Source: a virus (taxonomy: Duplodnaviria; Heunggongvirae; Uroviricota; Caudoviricetes). Taken from it: a stretch of 36,611 nucleotides of DNA. The stretch lies in IMG/VR virus record IMGVR_UViG_2537561930_000005; one strand, written 5' to 3'. The notes below the pieces were generated by a model that saw only the letters and a program-made list of their open reading frames with translations, was not told the DNA's origin and did no database searches. Position 1 is the stretch's first letter. Every line of letters starts with the position of its first letter. The position numbers and the translations under genes are program-made. This document shows, piece by piece, positions 3,919-16,527 of this stretch.

Positions 3919-5151
3919 TTAGTGGGTGACGGCTGATTGCTCAGCGTCTGGTTCCTGCTTCAACGGGCGGTCTGACTGCACCGTCCCTCCACAGGCAAGT
4001 ACGGCGTGCCCCGCCGCTAAAATGTTGCGAGCGCCGTTTACATCGGCGTTCGCTGTATATCCACAAGCCCGACACACGAATTTACTTTGTGTCAGGCGGT
4101 TTTCTTTCGCTGTATGACCACAGCACGCGCAACGCTGGCTTGTGTACGCTGGCGGAACAGCAAGCACCTGACCACCACGCCAGAGCTGCTTATACTCAAG
4201 CTGGCGGCGCATTTCATACCAGCCCTGATCCAGTATCGAACGGTTTAAACCTGATTTTGCCCGAACATTGCGCCCCGGTTGGCTGACCGTACCCGCTGCT
4301 GACTTTGACATGTTGCTGACCTTCAAATCCTCAATGACTATCATTGCGTGGTTTTTGCTGATGATCGTTGTGACTTTATGAAGGTAGTCTCTGCGGATAT
4401 TTGCGATACGGGAATGCAGACACTGTATTTTGCGTTTCTGCTTCTGCCAGTTGTTGCTGAATTTGACCCTGCGGCTTAACTGTCGCTGAAGTCTCGCCAG
4501 CTTCTTCTGGTTTTTCTGAAAACTGTTTACAGGTTCAAAGACTGTGCCATCTGACAGCGTGGCGAGTTTAGCCACGCCAGCATCCAGACCGACTATCGTT
4601 GTGCTTGTGTGATTTGGTTCTGCCGTTTCAACTTCAACCTGAAACGAGATATACCACTGTCCCGCTAACTGACTGATTGTCGCATTTTTGATTTTACCGT
4701 TCACACGTTGAGATTGCCGGAATTTTACCCACCCAAGACCTGACGGTAGCTTCACTCTGCGATTTTCAAGGCAGCAATATTTCTCAAAGTTCACAAAACG
4801 GATTGAGTCTCTTCCCTCATTTTTTCGTTTCCATACCGGAGCCTTAGCTGCGAGCTTTTTATCAAAACAACGTTTCCATGCGGTATGCAGGTCTTTCAGC
4901 TTTTGTTGCAGATTGTCGGTATAAGCATGCTGTAAGAAGATGTATTCCGGCATTTTTTTCCACACTGTAATCATCCGGTTCAACTCGAAAGCCGAAGGTA
5001 ACTTTTCGCCTGAGCCAAGTATGCGCTTTGTCTCCGCAAGACCTAAATTCCAGACAAAACGGGCGCAACCACATAACTGCCGCAAACGCTGCGACTGTTC
5101 ATGCGTTGGTTCCAGTCTGAATTTGTAGGCTTTCAGGATTAGCATCATCAT
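3919..5151 (-). CDS. tnpB: TnpB (OrfB) RNA-guided nuclease, 410 aa
   Basis: C-terminal zinc-finger CxxC...CxxC (CACCGH...CRACGY) and RuvC-like region typical of IS605 OrfB; adjacent to tnpA. Confidence 0.8.
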
Positions 5152-5972: not shown

Positions 5973-6164
5973 TTACTCCCCGTTCACCGAAAAATCACGA
6001 TAGAAACGTTTCCACATACGATAAGTCTGCGCGAGTTGTTCACCACGAAACATCGCCTTCCTGGCCTTCATGTTTTCCTTGTGAGACTTTCGATCTATGA
6101 ACCAAAACCATTGCTGGAACACACAAAGCAAGAGACACAAAGATAATATCCACTGATTACCCAT
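5973..6164 (-). CDS. Small membrane protein (63 aa, MGNQWILSLCLLLCVFQQWFWFI...)
   Basis: ATG at 6164 lies 2 nt upstream of the repA TAA stop (ATGGGTAA), suggesting translational coupling. One clear hydrophobic helix. Confidence 0.3.
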   Translation of the reverse strand: MGNQWILSLCLLLCVFQQWFWFIDRKSHKENMKARKAMFRGEQLAQTYRMWKRFYRDFSVNGE

Positions 6165-9100
6165 AGAAAGCGCCCTGCTCTTCGTAGCTGCATGGGCTAT
6201 TCCCGGTAATGTATTCACGTAACCGCCGCAGTTCATTGCTGGATAAGTGATCCATGAACTCTGTGAGGTACAGAGATGCAAACGTCATAGCTATGCTGGC
6301 TGATGACCATGATGACATAGTGGCCAGCTCCTCACCGGAAAGCGCACTCATCGCCCAGGACTCAGGTACAACCACTGGCAACACAGCCAAAGCCTCAGAA
6401 ATTACTGAATGAGGGGCGTTTTGAACCTGCTCGTTTGTGGATCGCGTTTTATCATCCATATATATATTGAGATCCAAATCGCGATCCATTTCGATGGCGG
6501 TCTTCTCGGCTTTACGCGTTTTCAGGGTTAGGCCATCTTTCTGACGCTGAGCAAGAATATCCAGCATAAATGCCGCTGATTCAGGCTCAACAAAACGCAA
6601 GGTTGGACGCTTATCGCCGTCTCTGCCGCGACGTTTACCTGTTTTAAGGCCAAGAGAGTCGCAAATGTTTTTAAACAACGCTTCCGGCACTTTAGGCTTC
6701 CCTTTTGGCGTCATAAAACCACCAATGTGCAGAACGTTATTCAACAGGTCACGGCGTTCGGCTGTCATGAGGTTATCTCGAGCAAATTTGAGACGCTCCT
6801 GAGTCGCCTCGCCGGTCATAGTCTCAGGGTTGATACCGCAGTCGATAAAGTACTGCCGGAGAGTTGCTGATTTAAGCGCATAGAAACCGCGCGCCCCGAC
6901 TTCAACAGTAGGAGTAGCTTTTACCTTGTGATCGATTATTCCAGGGAATTTAGTTTTAAAGACATCATCAGCCTGCTCGCGAGTCATCGCGGTCACTACA
7001 AAATATTGCCACTGTCCCGCCTGACGGTATGCGTAGGTAAAATTGATGGCTGCTTCTTCCCGGTCGTAACGACGAGCTGTTACCTCATCTAAAAGCATTG
7101 TTTCATAGCGGCGAACTTTGTCTCGAGCACCATCGAAATAGAATTTCAGCGTGCCTTCTTCAACCGGTAGTTTCAGTTCGTTTTCAATATCCCAGCGGAC
7201 AAGTTTTGCCTGTTCTTCAAGCGTCAGCGCGCGTTTTTTTAGCAGTTCTTCACGCTCTGATTCTTGTGGAGTTTCTGTATTGAGATGCAGATCCAGTGTC
7301 TGTTCCCACACAATATCCCGCGCTTCTTTACGCAGCTCTTTACCGATATCATTCGCAGCATAATCGGTGGCCAGCGGCGATACCTTATAACCGTCGCTGT
7401 GCATGATGCAGATCATGTTGCTGGCGTAGTCGTTACGCGCAGTCGCTTCAATAGCGGCTGCTTTAATTTTCATCCTGGTAAAGTCGGTATTGGCCACCCC
7501 CATTGATATACGGTCGCCATCGAAAACGACATCCGTCAGTTCACCGTTCATACCTGCGGTAGCAAGCAATGCCTGGGCGAATGCTCGTTCTATTTTTTGC
7601 GGGTCAGTTTCACGTTTTGCACGAGCTTTATCAAAGCCGATAATAAATTCTTTTGCTGTACGGTCGCGGCGTAGCATTTGCACTGCGTCGCTGGGTACAA
7701 CTTCACCACAGAACATGCCGAAATGACGGTCAAAATGTTTTTGCTCAATCGACACGCCGGATGAAATAGACGGGCTATAAATCAGGCCGTCGTATTTTTT
7801 GACCATCTTTTTCGGTTGATTGGTAAATGCTTCAACTTCTGGCTCTGGTTTGTTTTTCTGGTTTACACACAGAAATTTCTTACCAGGAAAATGCATTCTC
7901 AGGGTGGCTGTCACATCTTCTGCAAAGGTGGAGCTGTCGGTGGCCAACATGATTTTTTCGCCATCCGATACAGCTTTCACCACCTCGGTCATGATGCGAT
8001 CTTTTTCTGTATAAAAAACCCGGATTGGCTCACCTGTTTCGCGGTTGCGAACATCAACAGGTAATTCAATTACGTGGATCTGCAGCCATGCCGGTAAACC
8101 TAGTTCTTCACGGCGTTTCATAGCCAGTTCAGCCAGGTCAACCAGCAGATCATTCGCATCAGCATCCACCATGATTGGGTGTTGTTCTGTTCTGGCCAGC
8201 GCGTCAATTAGCGTATTGAATACAGCCACCGGGTTTTCCATAGCCCGACCGGAAAGAACGGCACGTAGCCCTTGTGTGGCCTCGTCAAAGCCAAAATAGT
8301 CGTGCTGGCGCATCAACGGTTGCCAGCAGTTTTTAACAATCGAGTTTATGCAGATGGTCAGTTTACTGGCGTATGGAGCCATTTCCTGATAGCCAGGATC
8401 CTGATAGTGCAGGATATCGGCTTTTACACCTTTTCCTTCTGTCATCATTTCCCACAGGCCGCCAATAAGGGAGACACGGTGAGCAACAGAGATACCACGT
8501 TCTGAGCTATGCATTAACGGTCGTAACAATCCAGTAGATTTGCCGGAACCCATACCAGCACGGACGATGACTATCCCCTGTAGTGATTGCACGTACTTCA
8601 GGACATCATCGGTCATTACCGAAGTTTCAAAACGCTTATAGGTGATATGTTGAGGGCGTTTATTGGGATCAGTTATGCGTTCGCTGAAAGAGCGCGGAGC
8701 CTGGGCAATACGGCACTTTTTATTCAGGCGACGGGCAATGTGGTCTTTTACCGTAGCGCGATAGATATTTTCCAGTCCCATTTCACGCAGAACGATGCAG
8801 AACATGTTAAATAAATCTGACGGACTGTTAGGAACCGGACAGGTTAGCATGCCAATATCCACCGCTCTCAGCAGCTCTTTGGCAAAAGTACGACGGTTAT
8901 CCCGCTTAATTGTCTTCAGGCGGTTGAGCGTCAGAGATAGCAAATCAGTACCAGTTTTCAGGCGGTTTGCTGTTGCAAATAGTTGACGTGCTGTTTCACG
9001 AAGTCCACGTAGTTTGTGCAGGTCGTTGAAGTCACTGCACTCCATTTGCGGATCGTCTTCAAAAGTTGGATAGACGCAGCGGACATCGTTGAATTTCGAT

Positions 9101-10152
9101 AAGATTTCATAGCCAGTCCGCAGGCCGGTATTCCCTTTTCCTTCTGTGGCAGATTTCCGGTCATTATCCAGTGCGCAGGTGATTTTTGCCGCCGGGTACA
9201 TGTTTACCAGTTGTTCCACAACATGAACCATGTTGTTAGCGGATACAGCGACAACCACAGCGTCAAAGCGTTTATCTTTTTTCGTGGCAAGCCAGATGGA
9301 TGCACCAGTAGCAAAACCTTCTGTAACAGCGATGTTTTGCGCCCCTTTCAGCTCACCGATAACAAAGCAGGCACCGACGAAATCGCCGCTGGTTACTGCG
9401 CTGGTCTGGTATTTTCCACCTTGTTTGTCGATTCGCTGCCAACCCACAATACGACCATCGTAACGACCGTCCAGGTGAGCCAGAGGGATAGCCATATACG
9501 TGGTTGGCCCCCTGCTCCATTTTGCGCTGTCGTGACTGGTCACGCGACGCACATCACACGAATTAAAAACGTCACGAATACCTTTTTTAATCGCATATGG
9601 CCATGAGCCGTCTTCTGCAGGAGCATGTTCCCACGCGCTGTGAAATGCCAGCCATCCCAGCAAACGTTCATGGTCAATTTGGTTGTTTTTCAGGTCATTA
9701 ATTCGTTTTTGTTCTTCACGGCGACGACGTGCTTCGGCCTGACGTTCTATTCTTGCCCGTTCTTCTTCCGGTTGTGCGACCACGGTCGCATTATTCCGTT
9801 GTTGCTCACGGCGATATTCAGAAAACAGGAAGGAGAAACCGCTCCATGAGCCAGCATCGCTGCCTTTATGGACGAAGTTAATGAACGGGTAATCAATCCC
9901 TTTGCTGTGTTCCAGCCGGGAGTAAATTTCTACGCGTCCTTTGAGGCTCTTCTCGAGAGCTTCTGGAGATGTTTTATTGTATGAAGAGTAACGCTCAACA
10001 CCCCCGCGAGGGTTGAGTTGGATGTTGTCGGAACAGGCAGGCCAGTTGATACCAGCCATCTGTGCCAGCTCGGTTAGTTCATCCCGTGCTGCTTCAATTA
10101 GCGAGAACGGATCGCTGCCAAAGCGATCCGCATAGAAATCGTTTAATGTCAT
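6157..10152 (-). CDS. repA: Replication protein RepA, primase-helicase fusion, 1331 aa
   Basis: Giant ORF with Walker A (GMGSGKST) helicase region and N-terminal primase-like region. Size and position (divergent from telN, adjacent to cB) match N15 repA, which I recall is ~1324 aa. Confidence 0.8.
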   Translation of the reverse strand: MTLNDFYADRFGSDPFSLIEAARDELTELAQMAGINWPACSDNIQLNPRGGVERYSSYNKTSPEALEKSLKGRVEIYSRLEHSKGIDYPFINFVHKGSDAGSWSGFSFLFSEYRREQQRNNATVVAQPEEERARIERQAEARRRREEQKRINDLKNNQIDHERLLGWLAFHSAWEHAPAEDGSWPYAIKKGIRDVFNSCDVRRVTSHDSAKWSRGPTTYMAIPLAHLDGRYDGRIVGWQRIDKQGGKYQTSAVTSGDFVGACFVIGELKGAQNIAVTEGFATGASIWLATKKDKRFDAVVVAVSANNMVHVVEQLVNMYPAAKITCALDNDRKSATEGKGNTGLRTGYEILSKFNDVRCVYPTFEDDPQMECSDFNDLHKLRGLRETARQLFATANRLKTGTDLLSLTLNRLKTIKRDNRRTFAKELLRAVDIGMLTCPVPNSPSDLFNMFCIVLREMGLENIYRATVKDHIARRLNKKCRIAQAPRSFSERITDPNKRPQHITYKRFETSVMTDDVLKYVQSLQGIVIVRAGMGSGKSTGLLRPLMHSSERGISVAHRVSLIGGLWEMMTEGKGVKADILHYQDPGYQEMAPYASKLTICINSIVKNCWQPLMRQHDYFGFDEATQGLRAVLSGRAMENPVAVFNTLIDALARTEQHPIMVDADANDLLVDLAELAMKRREELGLPAWLQIHVIELPVDVRNRETGEPIRVFYTEKDRIMTEVVKAVSDGEKIMLATDSSTFAEDVTATLRMHFPGKKFLCVNQKNKPEPEVEAFTNQPKKMVKKYDGLIYSPSISSGVSIEQKHFDRHFGMFCGEVVPSDAVQMLRRDRTAKEFIIGFDKARAKRETDPQKIERAFAQALLATAGMNGELTDVVFDGDRISMGVANTDFTRMKIKAAAIEATARNDYASNMICIMHSDGYKVSPLATDYAANDIGKELRKEARDIVWEQTLDLHLNTETPQESEREELLKKRALTLEEQAKLVRWDIENELKLPVEEGTLKFYFDGARDKVRRYETMLLDEVTARRYDREEAAINFTYAYRQAGQWQYFVVTAMTREQADDVFKTKFPGIIDHKVKATPTVEVGARGFYALKSATLRQYFIDCGINPETMTGEATQERLKFARDNLMTAERRDLLNNVLHIGGFMTPKGKPKVPEALFKNICDSLGLKTGKRRGRDGDKRPTLRFVEPESAAFMLDILAQRQKDGLTLKTRKAEKTAIEMDRDLDLNIYMDDKTRSTNEQVQNAPHSVISEALAVLPVVVPESWAMSALSGEELATMSSWSSASIAMTFASLYLTEFMDHLSSNELRRLREYITGNSPCSYEEQGAFYG
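6436..6490. other. Candidate internal replication origin element within the 3' part of repA
   Basis: Inverted repeat GGATCGCG (6439-6446) / CGCGATCC (6480-6487) flanking an AT-rich spacer containing TATATATAT; three GATC sites within ~50 bp. Confidence 0.3.
9775..9790. other. sopC-like partition (centromere) site copy 1, TGCGACCACGGTCGCA, inside repA
   Basis: 16-bp element with 7-bp inverted arms around AC. Exact 16-mer is repeated at 12218 and 16512. Differs at 2 positions from the F SopB-binding core TGGGACCACGGTCCCA as I recall it. Confidence 0.6.
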
Positions 10153-10397: not shown

Positions 10398-10994
10398 TCA
10401 TCTACCCTCAACCATGAATGATTTGATCGTTCCGACTATTTGGTGAACAAATTCAAGATCGCTTTTCCTGAAGATAGCGCGTTGTGAGTTTGTTCCATCC
10501 AGATAGTAATTTTCATCATCAAAACGGGCTAGGCGCTGGATAGTGATATTTCCTGCAGTATCACGAACCAGAACATCCTCGCCGGGGACCAGTTCCAGCG
10601 CAGAATCGACCAGGAGAAAATCGCCTGGCTGATAGTTTCCCTGCGTAAGATTGCTGATAGTTAACGCATACACAGTATTGCGCTGGCTGATGAATGGCAG
10701 GAATCGCTCAGTATTTGGAACCTGTCCCGGCTTCCACTCTTCATCAGGCCCACTTTCAGTTGTGCCAATAACAGGAATGCGATCAGGGTCATATTCTGTC
10801 CCATATAGCACCCAATGTACTGGCTTGCGTAAGCACTTAGCCAGGGCAATACCTATCTCCAGTGACGGCATTACGTCGCCACGTTCTAAGTTTTGGACGC
10901 CTGCTATAGAGATATCGACAGCCTCAGCAACTTCTCGCAACGTCAGCTTCATCTCTAAACGGCGTGCTTTCAGTCGTTCGCCTCGTGTTTTCAT
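10398..10994 (-). CDS. cB: Prophage repressor CB (CI-like, N-terminal HTH), 198 aa
   Basis: HTH_XRE segment LTLREVAEAVDISIAGVQNLERG, CI/LexA-like C-terminal fold, divergent from a cro-like gene with palindromic operators between them. Confidence 0.8.
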   Translation of the reverse strand: MKTRGERLKARRLEMKLTLREVAEAVDISIAGVQNLERGDVMPSLEIGIALAKCLRKPVHWVLYGTEYDPDRIPVIGTTESGPDEEWKPGQVPNTERFLPFISQRNTVYALTISNLTQGNYQPGDFLLVDSALELVPGEDVLVRDTAGNITIQRLARFDDENYYLDGTNSQRAIFRKSDLEFVHQIVGTIKSFMVEGR

Positions 10995-11085: not shown

Positions 11086-11307
11086 ATGAAACCAGAAGAA
11101 CTTATTCGCCACTTTGGCAGTGTTGAAAAAGCAGCGGCAGGGGTAGGTGTAACACCCGGAGCTGTTTACCAATGGTTAACCGCTGGAGAGATTCCTTCAT
11201 TGCGGCAAAGCGATATTGAAGTTCGTACTGCTTACAAGCTGAAGAGTGACTTTACAACTCGGCGGGTAAAGCAGTCGATTAAGGAGAGTCGTAAGCGTGG
11301 AGCTTGA
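11086..11307 (+). CDS. cro: Cro-like repressor (HTH), 73 aa
   Basis: HTH FGSVEKAAAGVGVTPGAVYQWL; divergent from cB. Possibly leaderless, as the -10 lies immediately upstream. Start codon uncertain. Confidence 0.6.
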   Translation: MKPEELIRHFGSVEKAAAGVGVTPGAVYQWLTAGEIPSLRQSDIEVRTAYKLKSDFTTRRVKQSIKESRKRGA

Positions 11308-12007
11308 GTATATACGCAGCTGCGTCTCTACGGCATTGGCTGATGTTCATTATCGCCAGCGTGGCATTCTGGAGGTCCAGCTTGAGCAGATGCGTCTCGG
11401 TAGATCAGGACGGTTTAACAATAAACCAGTCCGGTCAATCAGTGTGGGGGATGATAACTCATACGAAGTGTCCGTTCCCGCTGAGCCGGTTAGATTCCAC
11501 CAGGGGAAAACATTTAAACAATCATCAATGTTGCTCACTGATATTGATTTTCAGAGCGCCAGCTGGCGCAGGGCTATTTGTCAGTTGAATAACGAGGAAT
11601 CAGCCTGGCTTTATTATTGCTACGGATGCAAGCCTGACTACAACAATGATGTGATTGTTTGTCAGTGGTTATGGCTTGATTTTCTGGTTGCTCATTCGGG
11701 GGGCGGCTTTAAAAAAATGAAGGCCTCCACGAAAAAAGCCATGCGGAAATTGATTTATTACGCGGCACAGCAGGTTAAATCAGAACTTACGTGTGCTGAG
11801 GCAGTTGATGAGAGAGAACAGGACAGGCATCTGAGTTTTCTACTGAATATATCTATTGATAGCTGGAGACAAGATTATAAAGAACGCTGGCTTTTAATTA
11901 AGTCGCGATGTCTGAGCTTAAATCGAACCGCATTATTAAATGCGGCGGAGAAGCGCAGTGAAATCATCAAACGCCATCGGGCAGGAAGTGCCATTCTGCC
12001 TTTGTAA
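11297..12007 (+). CDS. Putative late-gene regulator (Q-like antiterminator?), 236 aa
   Basis: GTG start with RBS AAGGAGAG, overlapping the cro stop. Position matches N15 Q by recollection only; no diagnostic motif verified. Confidence 0.35.
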   Translation: MELEYIRSCVSTALADVHYRQRGILEVQLEQMRLGRSGRFNNKPVRSISVGDDNSYEVSVPAEPVRFHQGKTFKQSSMLLTDIDFQSASWRRAICQLNNEESAWLYYCYGCKPDYNNDVIVCQWLWLDFLVAHSGGGFKKMKASTKKAMRKLIYYAAQQVKSELTCAEAVDEREQDRHLSFLLNISIDSWRQDYKERWLLIKSRCLSLNRTALLNAAEKRSEIIKRHRAGSAILPL

Positions 12008-12260
12008 ACAAGTTATGTTCAGGAAACCGTCGAAGCCAGAATTAAGGTATTCGGGGGTAAGAAATGAATATGTCATCTGGTGTCCAACTTGCGGTTACAG
12101 GACACGACCCGATAGTAATAAGCAGTCTGTAATTGCCGATTGGTATTTATCAAATCAGCCAGGTAATAAGCATATAGAAAATCTTTGGATTAAGCGTTAT
12201 CTGGAAATTAGAGAGGGTGCGACCACGGTCGCACAAGAAAATGAAAATAACGCCATTTAA
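11940..12260 (+). CDS. Small zinc-ribbon protein (CxC...CPTCG), possibly Lar-like
   Basis: Cys pairs CLC and CPTCGY. The ATG at 11940 overlaps the Q-like gene; alternative start at 12015. Confidence 0.3.
   Translation: MRRRSAVKSSNAIGQEVPFCLCKQVMFRKPSKPELRYSGVRNEYVIWCPTCGYRTRPDSNKQSVIADWYLSNQPGNKHIENLWIKRYLEIREGATTVAQENENNAI
12218..12233. other. sopC-like partition site copy 2 (TGCGACCACGGTCGCA)
   Basis: Exact repeat of the 16-mer at 9775; lies within the 3' end of the zinc-ribbon ORF. Confidence 0.6.
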
Positions 12261-15016: not shown

Positions 15017-15235
15017 ATGGTATTAGATTCAATGACTGAAGCACCTGTATCAACTCTTGAAGAACTCGGATCAAACCTAAAAGACATCGACGCCGTTTTG
15101 GATCTGGTTAGCGTTGCTCTGGCTTCTCCAGAAGCCAGCTTGCATCTTGGCGAGATTTCACGACTTGTTAGTATGTCGCGGGAGATAGCTCAGAATTGCC
15201 AACAAGTTATTGCTGTTGAGAGTTTACATCATTGA
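15017..15235 (+). CDS. Hypothetical small acidic protein (72 aa)
   Basis: ORF downstream of the operator-like site; start uncertain. Confidence 0.35.
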   Translation: MVLDSMTEAPVSTLEELGSNLKDIDAVLDLVSVALASPEASLHLGEISRLVSMSREIAQNCQQVIAVESLHH

Positions 15236-15278
15236 TACACACCCCGCCCTTCCGGACGGGGTAGCGAAAAGGGTCTAA

Positions 15279-15566
15279 TCAATAGACGGCATTAATATTA
15301 ATCGTTGCACCGCATGCTTGGGCATATTTTGATAAAGTTTTCATGCTTGCCCCTAAAGGATTGCTTTCCAGGCGGCTGATAGCTGACGGGCGCAATCCCA
15401 TTCGTTCAGCCAGAGCTGACTTCGTTAAACCTGCTCTTTCCCTCATTTCGTATAACATTTCGACCATCTCCAGCTCTTTATCGGCCTCTTCATATCCTTT
15501 GATGGCTTCTGGAGTGTTGAGAAGTTTTTCTTTTACTTCGTTAAACGGGATGCCTTTCGCTTTCAT
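15279..15566 (-). CDS. HTH_XRE antitoxin (HigA-like), 95 aa
   Basis: HTH LTKSALAERMGLRPSAISRLE. ATG overlaps the toxin stop (TGATG); RBS AAGGAG lies within the toxin 3' end. Confidence 0.7.
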   Translation of the reverse strand: MKAKGIPFNEVKEKLLNTPEAIKGYEEADKELEMVEMLYEMRERAGLTKSALAERMGLRPSAISRLESNPLGASMKTLSKYAQACGATININAVY

Positions 15567-15877
15567 CAGTTCATCTCCTTCAGGCGAGTTCTGGCGATTT
15601 CGATAGCCTTCACCGGTGTTTTCTGTGTCTTTTTTACAAATGCATGCAATAGATAAATTTCGTTACCAGTCGCGTAGGCGTACAGCGTTCTTGCGATGTT
15701 TTTATCCCCTACTCGTAGTTCAAAAAGCCCTCCACCTATTACACGGCTATGGGGCATCTTCAGTTTGTTGCCTTCTTTCTCCAGTCGCTCAATTAATCTG
15801 GTCATGCGACCTCGCAAATCATCTGGTAGTTCAAGCAGTTCATCCAGTGCTGCAGGGTGGGTTATCACGTTAAACAT
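15566..15877 (-). CDS. RelE/ParE-superfamily toxin, HigB / Gp49-like, 103 aa
   Basis: Size, toxin-first order and sequence character match the phage Gp49-like (HigB-type) killer family, which was named after N15 gp49. Confidence 0.65.
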   Translation of the reverse strand: MFNVITHPAALDELLELPDDLRGRMTRLIERLEKEGNKLKMPHSRVIGGGLFELRVGDKNIARTLYAYATGNEIYLLHAFVKKTQKTPVKAIEIARTRLKEMN

Positions 15878-15935
15878 ATTATAGCCTCCATATCCATAAA
15901 ATACACCAAAACAAGAAAACAGCGCAAATTAAAAA

Positions 15936-15953
15936 TTTCACTAAAAAGTGAAA
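15936..15953. promoter_or_regulatory. Palindrome TTTCACT-AAAA-AGTGAAA, putative toxin-antitoxin operator
   Basis: Perfect 7-bp inverted arms ~60-80 bp upstream of the toxin start, in the divergent intergenic region. Confidence 0.45.
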
Positions 15954-16042
15954 AATAACACTGGATGTGTTCGTTTGGCAGAGTTACAGTTCGTGTCATT
16001 GAGGGGCAATAACCCACTAACTATATGAATTTGGAGGATATT

Positions 16043-16511: not shown

Positions 16512-16527
16512 TGCGACCACGGTCGCA
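16512..16527. other. sopC-like partition site copy 3 (TGCGACCACGGTCGCA)
   Basis: Exact 16-mer, intergenic, 7 nt after the stop of the upstream gene. Confidence 0.6.

Follow-up and report, generated by a model that had tools for sequence, protein, structure and literature searches.

A Gp49-type toxin-antitoxin cassette with a putative palindromic operator at its 5' edge on an N15-like phage-plasmid

The stretch of DNA considered here, called the window throughout, is the whole 36,611-nucleotide IMG/VR virus record IMGVR_UViG_2537561930_000005 (Caudoviricetes), and the locus at issue is a pair of small genes with an upstream palindrome, at positions 15279-15953, which very probably constitutes a toxin-antitoxin (TA) system of the kind carried by phage N15. 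Both genes lie on the minus strand. The first, at 15566-15877, is an open reading frame of 103 amino acids orthologous to N15 gene 49 and encodes a toxin of the Gp49/Tad type within the RelE/ParE superfamily, and the second, at 15279-15566, has 95 amino acids, is orthologous to N15 gene 48 and encodes the antitoxin, a DNA-binding protein of the Xre/HTH_3 kind. The two frames meet at a TGATG junction (15564-15568, minus strand, read as CATCA on the plus strand) in which the toxin TGA and the antitoxin ATG share one base, and this overlap suggests translational coupling of the two products. The antitoxin has its own ribosome-binding site, AAGGAG at 15575-15580 (minus), set within the last codons of the toxin gene and 8 nucleotides before the ATG, and that of the toxin, GGAGG at 15885-15889 (minus), stands 7 nucleotides before its start codon and is kept in nearly all relatives, the few exceptions being GGGGG or shifted alignment rows among the most divergent sequences. 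No convincing internal promoter for the antitoxin emerged when the toxin gene was scanned with a relaxed consensus. A preliminary description of this DNA, made from its letters, had proposed the toxin-first order with a one-nucleotide overlap, an antitoxin ribosome-binding site inside the toxin gene and a helix-turn-helix (HTH) antitoxin, and the open reading frames, the junction and the domain matches given below agree with it on all three.

At the level of protein family the toxin matches Pfam PF05973 (Gp49) along the full model, positions 1-90 of 90, with 101.6 bits against a cut-off of 23.9 (expect value, E, 2.5e-29). A Pfam scan of the toxin at E <= 0.01 returned Gp49 alone and so did not return the classical Rts1-type HigB model, and an NCBIfam scan gave zero matches for the toxin; the initial label of "HigB/Gp49-type" thus stands in its Gp49 part, and in its HigB part holds only in the loose Gp49/Tad sense. 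Residues 38-88 of the antitoxin match Pfam HTH_3 (E 1.6e-12), the pair matches PHROG 2523 and 1373 at full length, and RefSeq labels the identical proteins as a RelE/ParE-family toxin and an HTH protein. A toxin gene placed first and immediately adjoined by a gene for an Xre-family HTH antitoxin is the Gp49-type arrangement, as is found here, and the validated Gp49-type TA modules are all toxin-first (PMC5906591).

On gene content the window is an N15-like linear plasmid-prophage, that is a protelomerase phage-plasmid, because it carries a protelomerase gene (83-1984), a RepA-type large primase-helicase gene (6157-10152, minus), a CB-like HTH/S24 repressor gene (10398-10994, minus) and a Q antiterminator gene (11297-12007), and because its first 25 kb match the Escherichia phages PhiR46_1 and YDC107_1 of the genus Ravinvirus at 96-97% identity over 84-87% of the length; the extrachromosomal prophage supposed at the outset is borne out by the same gene content and phage identity. 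The toxin is 100% identical to the protein of YDC107_1 and PhiR46_1, 92.2% to N15 gp49 and 91% to phiKO2 Gp49, and the antitoxin is 86% identical to N15 gp48. In N15 the pair is likewise flanked by gene 47 and by the divergent genes 50/51, and RefSeq names the N15 gene 49 product "type II toxin-antitoxin system RelE/ParE family toxin". Neither sopA nor sopB was found within the window. The palindrome GTGCGACCACGGTCGCAC, that is (G)TGCGACCACGGTCGCA(C), occurs in three exact copies (9775-9790, 12218-12233 and 16512-16527), and the phiKO2 record annotates this sequence as a "putative plasmid partitioning site"; the three copies are likely to be dispersed sopC-like centromere sites and are consistent with a Sop-type partition of the element.

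Orthology to N15 matters since the TA function and the stabilising role are drawn from literature on the N15 locus. The Pfam Gp49/COG4679 family is routinely exemplified by N15 gp49, and Makarova et al. tie it to Tad-Ata and to the RelE RNases (PMC2701414). The N15 gp49-gp48 locus is called a toxin-antitoxin pair in PMC3581621, and citing papers that mention Dziewit et al. 2007 (PMC2701414, PMC5906591, PMC3581621, PMC4553209) credit that work with presenting gp49-gp48 as a plasmid-stabilising TA system. As an orthologue of that locus the pair is already known, the N15 locus having given Pfam Gp49 its name and having been published in 2007 as a stabilising TA system. What the present analysis adds is modest and concerns the borders of the cassette, its sharing with IncFII plasmids, and comparative signs that the upstream palindrome is more probably an antitoxin operator than a terminator. 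The abstract of Dziewit et al. reportedly describes stabilisation of heterologous replicons by gp49-gp48, a bacteriostatic action of the toxins in Escherichia coli and two promoters for each cassette.

How the toxin acts can be predicted from solved relatives. Profiles of both proteins were compared with the PDB, the toxin profile being built from 19 relatives, and the toxin profile finds S. pneumoniae HigB (6AF3_A, E 9.7e-9) and M. tuberculosis HigB1/HigB-TAC (7NBU and 7AWK, E about 3e-6), while the antitoxin profile finds HipB, M. tuberculosis HigA2 and HigA3, and S. pneumoniae HigA (6AF3_B); both proteins thus match the two chains of one solved complex, S. pneumoniae HigBA (6AF3). Cryo-EM of HigB-TAC shows a ribosome-dependent RNase sitting in the A site, and its catalytic pocket residues R68, R77, F93 and K95 correspond to R68, R73, F90 and K92 of S. 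pneumoniae HigB, to which E66 is added (PMC9098466). In the toxin of the window E53, R55, R63, F80 and K82 align with these catalytic and mRNA-contacting residues, and all five are invariant among 34 distinct toxins of 56-100% identity. Because this E/R/R/F/K set of S. pneumoniae HigB and M. tuberculosis HigB-TAC is conserved, the toxin is most likely an RNase that enters the A site of the ribosome to cut mRNA. A single-sequence AlphaFold2 model of the toxin is poor (mean predicted local distance difference test, pLDDT, of 45), and the order of its elements (H, H, E, E, E, E, H) is compatible with a RelE-like fold, taken as four antiparallel strands with three flanking helices.

Upstream of the toxin gene, at 15936-15953 and with no strand of its own, stands the palindrome O1, a putative operator for the antitoxin or the TA complex that also marks the 5' edge of the cassette. 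Its arms, TTTCACT (15936-15942) and AGTGAAA (15947-15953), enclose an AAAA loop in a perfect 7+4+7 arrangement, as had been noticed from the letters, and it exists as a single exact copy in the window. As a palindrome it is not significant by itself, because 12.6% of first-order Markov simulations of the AT-rich 166-bp intergenic region contain a perfect inverted repeat with 7-bp arms and a loop of 0-8 nucleotides; counted across the whole window, overlapping perfect repeats with 7-bp arms number 68 against about 21 in such simulations. That frequency is also what would favour reading the palindrome as a chance feature of an AT-rich region, or alternatively as a regulatory part of the divergent gene 50/51 operon, and the entire intergenic region between genes 49 and 50 is conserved among N15-like phages, the identical dyad being present in N15, phiKO2 and YDC107_1. 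Both proposals are nevertheless very improbable, in view of how the palindrome has changed in more distant copies. What makes it significant is that relatives conserve it and change it symmetrically, as seen in 48 distinct alignable upstream regions assembled from a scan of one genome per species and a scan of IMG/VR. Across these the seven proposed pairs of O1 are complementary in 94% of cells, double-sided changes occupy 10 cells across three pairs against a shuffle mean of 2.2, the observed covariation was reached in none of 500 shuffles, and the signal is lost when the partner column is slid.

The variants themselves are instructive. IncF copies read TTTCAT-N6-ATGAAA and so are changed on both arms, and fully symmetric variants occur as TTTCTC/GAGAAA in Xenorhabdus, as TTTCTA/TAGAAA, as TTTATC/GATAAA and as TTTAGTTA/TAACTAAA in Erwinia. 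The half-site goes with the presumed recognition helix of the antitoxin, in that PSAISRLE accompanies TTTCA(C/T), QSGINSLM accompanies TTTCTA, QSALNRLE accompanies TTTATC and PSTITQLE accompanies TTTAGTTA, a correspondence drawn from a small sample in which shared ancestry is a confounder. Distant relatives with 41-48% toxin identity, which occur on Shiga toxin (Stx) phages as well as on IncX and IncF plasmids, carry palindromes or repeats of a quite different kind within the corresponding promoter region. Among them the Stx phages 75/02 (L005) and PhiR5_2 (L006) carry Gp49-type toxin homologues of 43-48% identity whose starts are annotated at 1198 and 1231, with the frame open from an ATG at 1132, and their upstream palindromes, at about 1069-1121, are TGTGTTG-N4-CAACACA in L005 only and ATAACAAATTTGTTAT in both.

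A promoter can be placed between the palindrome and the toxin gene. The predicted −35 element, TTGCGC at 15922-15927 (minus), is at a conserved position that reads TTGTGT in N15, TTGACA in locus L138, TTGACG in L143 and TTGACT in L025, and 16 nucleotides downstream of it is a predicted extended −10 element, TGG-TGTATT at 15900-15908 (minus), whose position is conserved in the 48 relatives and which reads TATAAT in L018 and L139 and TATATT in N15 and phiKO2. The spacing between the two elements is 16-17 nucleotides among relatives, and the end of the dyad stands a fixed 7-9 nucleotides upstream of the conserved −35 (8 nucleotides in the window). A TATTTT hexamer next to the palindrome was also weighed as a −10, in which case transcription would begin at the dyad, but a conserved −35 is missing there and the IncF upstream region is unrelated; such a promoter is not supported.

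Several points weigh against an operator at this place, and a number of them are equally points for a second account of the palindrome, namely that it is an intrinsic (rho-independent) terminator or insulator, which would shield the cassette from transcription entering on its upstream side (read-through antisense to genes 50/51, for instance, or, on IncF plasmids, from repA) and leave its own promoter as the sole driver of the toxin. The first is geometry, since the centre of the dyad would be near −51 from the presumed start and hence upstream of the −35, an unusual position for a repressor site; for the terminator account it counts that the element precedes the predicted promoter. Well-studied HigA operators overlap the −35 and −10 elements. 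HigA3 of the M. tuberculosis HigBA3 system did not bind a palindrome that precedes the −35, and did bind the −10 box (PMC7340258). The N15 GenBank record calls the identical stem-loop a "putative rho-indep. transcription terminator" on the coding strand, and on that strand the RNA would have a 7-bp stem and a UUUU loop followed by UUUUUAAUUU (−6.2 kcal/mol, z-score −2.8), with five U residues after the stem, so that the dyad and its T run resemble a weak terminator. Symmetric covariation would suit a hairpin as well as a protein site, and the seventh, innermost pair of the IncF variant is only T-G, which RNA tolerates.

Against the terminator, however, the stem is AT-rich with only two G-C pairs and a consensus terminator scan made no call at the palindrome. 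One-sided changes abolish the hairpin, leaving −2.0 kcal/mol or weaker, in 10 of the 35 distinct palindrome-region variants that accompany intact cassettes, and these include AGTTAAA, the common form in Klebsiella phages. Relatives of the Erwinia type have a zero-loop palindrome, TTTAGTTATAACTAAA, that would make a poor hairpin. In N15-like phages genes 50/51 diverge from the palindrome and there are no upstream genes transcribed toward it, and the half-sites change together with the recognition helix of the antitoxin, which a terminator would not require. A terminator or insulator in place of an operator thus seems unlikely, and 15936-15953 is reasonably likely to be the antitoxin operator; to judge by its evolution, the element that the N15 record calls a "terminator" is more probably such an operator, at an atypical position. 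The autoregulation by way of this palindrome that had been suggested earlier accordingly has comparative backing from covariation and the helix link, and has the position upstream of the −35, the terminator annotation and the HigBA3 precedent set against it. For the family at large, the A. baumannii Gp49-type HigA represses its own operon, and the complex does so more strongly.

A second site might account for the position of O1. The sequence TTTCTTG-TTTT-GGTGTAT at 15901-15918 (minus), here O2, is a degenerate candidate copy that lies over the −10 element and 35 bp from O1. Resemblance to O1 is highest at an offset of +35/36, with a mean identity of 10.65 of 18 positions against a background of about 6 in the 48 sequences, and a within-versus-between comparison gave a difference of 0.7 of 18 positions, a figure biased by the picking of the best offset for each sequence. 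That O2 is a second operator copy over the −10 can be put forward as a weak hypothesis, and it is possible that such a site explains why O1 lies upstream of the −35.

Where the cassette begins and ends can be read from copies on plasmids. Of 5426 complete E. coli genomes searched, 538 gave some match and 112 a near-full one, and the cassette was found beside the IncFII repA on large F-type plasmids, including a pINV of enteroinvasive E. coli, at about 82% nucleotide identity. The IncFII copies (L007, L008 and L009, from E. coli and E. marmotae) are about 1 kb downstream of repA, and relative to the window their toxins are 92-95% and their antitoxins 86-88% identical, with an identical HTH region; the IncFII pair has the accessions WP_000483538 and WP_000865086. 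Many plasmids retain only an antitoxin fragment abutting an IS91 transposase gene, and such fragments look like orphan antitoxin remnants. Similarity of the IncFII copies to the window runs from about 5-8 nucleotides upstream of the palindrome to the antitoxin stop codon, with BLAST matches starting one or two bases outside the palindrome, and the mobile unit spanning this interval therefore measures about 680 bp, the dyad forming its 5' border. To judge by the shared interval, N15-like phage-plasmids and IncFII plasmids have exchanged a compact cassette of this size.

The same copies bear on the reading that would assign the dyad to the divergent operon, as the palindrome travels with the cassette and the IncFII plasmids with the cassette lack genes 50/51, so the dyad cannot belong to those genes. 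Conservation of the palindrome as a neutral flank in recent transfers from N15-like phages is spoken against by the 18% nucleotide divergence of the IncF copies. The name YacAB, used for a system of Shigella pINV, was considered for the IncF copies; there the first gene is yacA, and the published primers are unlike the cassette, and identity with YacAB is not claimed.

Taken together, the locus is probably a type II TA addiction cassette orthologous to N15 49/48 with the palindrome as its operator. A single predicted promoter, the one formed by TTGCGC and TGG-TGTATT, would drive a bicistronic mRNA with the toxin gene first, and the antitoxin would be translated from its own AAGGAG, coupled to toxin translation via the TGATG, and would neutralise the toxin. 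A dimeric Xre-type HTH antitoxin, alone or bound to toxin, would bind the dyad, TTTCAC-N6-GTGAAA, just upstream of the −35 and may also occupy the degenerate second site over the −10, either binding then repressing its own operon. Upon loss of the prophage-plasmid a presumably labile antitoxin would disappear first and the leftover toxin would arrest the cell, a form of post-segregational killing that would complement active partition.

The role of such a cassette in a lysogen may of course be a different one. Its main purpose could be anti-phage defence, by abortive infection or exclusion, or plasmid competition, rather than stabilisation of the prophage, and one form of competition would be anti-addiction, a cross-neutralisation of the 92-95% identical toxins encoded next to IncFII repA. 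Cross-neutralisation is plausible because the IncFII cassettes are near-identical and share the HTH region exactly. Deletion of the homologue in SXT, which Dziewit et al. also studied, left the stability of the native element intact (PMC2654960), and this weighs against the stabilising role proposed above: a cassette may stabilise a test plasmid without having that as its native function and without contributing much to the maintenance of the prophage. The defence reading in turn finds little in the surroundings: PADLOC reports no defence-system membership, the toxin giving a partial 28-bit match to the C-terminal end of NsnC and the antitoxin generic HTH matches, there are no partner genes of a defence system nearby, no experiment in the literature consulted ties the Gp49-type family to phage defence, and the literature assigns the N15 locus a stabilising role (PMC2701414, PMC5906591, PMC4553209). 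On this evidence a main role in defence or competition is quite unlikely, and the abortive infection named as an alternative in the preliminary description is left unsupported by the PADLOC scan.

Parts of these accounts lead to a bolder reading. In it O1 would be a border element serving as both an insulator hairpin and an anchor site, and, as a separate matter, the prophage copy could be an anti-addiction device against the IncFII cassette. The border element may work as a weak transcriptional insulator hairpin and as a high-affinity anchor near −51, from which antitoxin-toxin complexes reach the degenerate −10 site, and the anti-addiction part is possible because the HTH region of the IncFII cassette beside repA is identical. 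As a whole this reading is rather doubtful. If true, the operator geometry of the border element would be unlike that of classical HigA operators overlapping the promoter region, and N15-like phage-plasmids and F-type plasmids would cancel each other's post-segregational killing.

Other features adjoin the cassette. A GC-rich hairpin at 15240-15266 (minus) begins 13 nucleotides past the antitoxin stop and sits between the antitoxin gene and a convergent gene-47-like open reading frame (15017-15235). Its RNA folds at −21.4 kcal/mol on the minus strand (z-score −2.2) and at −13.4 kcal/mol on the plus strand, with no U tract on either side, and the consensus terminator scan left it uncalled; it is a candidate transcription stop shared by the antitoxin gene and the convergent frame. 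On the far side of the palindrome a short block at 15979-15991 (plus, CAGAGTTACAGTT), in the intergenic region between genes 49 and 50, is nearly invariant in all N15-like relatives, including those with diverged flanks, and is adjoined, near the gene-50 start, by a small G+C stem-loop of varying sequence. An Rfam match to RyhB (RF00057) covers 15929-16000 (minus) at 26.3 bits against a gathering threshold of 55, using the palindrome and its T run as the terminator and the UCCAGUGUUAUU stretch. A RyhB-like small RNA ending at the dyad was judged a chance match and rejected: the score is half the gathering score, one of 19 related loci (L120) gives a comparable match and N15 and phiKO2 give none, the palindrome is the sole conserved structure of the region, and upstream there is just one promoter-like site (16047-16020), which overlaps the start of gene 50 and is unconserved in N15.

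Further away, a 410-amino-acid open reading frame at 3919-5151 (minus) has OrfB_IS605, Cas12f1-like TNB and HTH_OrfB_IS605 domains and is a TnpB of the IS200/IS605 family, inserted between the protelomerase gene and repA, a place where relatives hold other insertions, for example ISKpn26 in NZ_LR883007.1. The TA region of that replicon (L162) is 100% identical to the window, with different insertion sequences and layout. NZ_LR883007.1 was deposited as circular, and at 40047-43831 it holds two inverted protelomerase copies with mirrored flanking genes, which looks like assembly read-through of the hairpin telomere of a linear plasmid. No telomere repeat stands at the start of the window.

Among known systems the closest is N15 gp49-gp48 itself, which has the same lengths of 103 and 95 amino acids, the same one-base overlap, the same place between genes 47 and 50 and the same layout of upstream palindrome and promoter; the differences are a few substitutions, a −10 of TGTATT with an upstream TG in the window where N15 has TATATT, and unrelated sequence past the antitoxin stop. 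S. pneumoniae HigBA (6AF3) and M. tuberculosis HigB-TAC/HigB1 (7NBU, 7AWK) share the toxin family, the toxin-first order and an Xre-HTH antitoxin, with the E/R/R/F/K set and a C-terminal QKTP motif conserved, but they are distant (profile E 1e-8 to 1e-6) and the SecB-like chaperone of the mycobacterial toxin-antitoxin-chaperone (TAC) system is absent here.

Tad-ata of Paracoccus aminophilus pAMI2 and HigBA2 of A. baumannii pAB120 are likewise plasmid-borne, toxin-first cassettes of the Gp49 type, the latter stabilising plasmids and being autorepressed by its antitoxin and more strongly by the complex, whereas sequence identity to the present pair is low and the operators are other ones; the A. 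baumannii pair is itself about 20% identical to Tad toxins (PMC5906591). HigBA of Rts1 from Proteus vulgaris is also toxin-first, with a ribosome-dependent RNase of the RelE superfamily and an HTH antitoxin that binds palindromic operators, but its toxin is of another family and its operators overlap the promoter region, in contrast to the clear palindrome upstream of the −35 here. The phd-doc module of phage-plasmid P1 offers the parallel in biological role, being an addiction module on an extrachromosomal prophage beside active partition, although its proteins are unrelated, its order is antitoxin-first and its Doc toxin is a Fic-family kinase and not an RNase.

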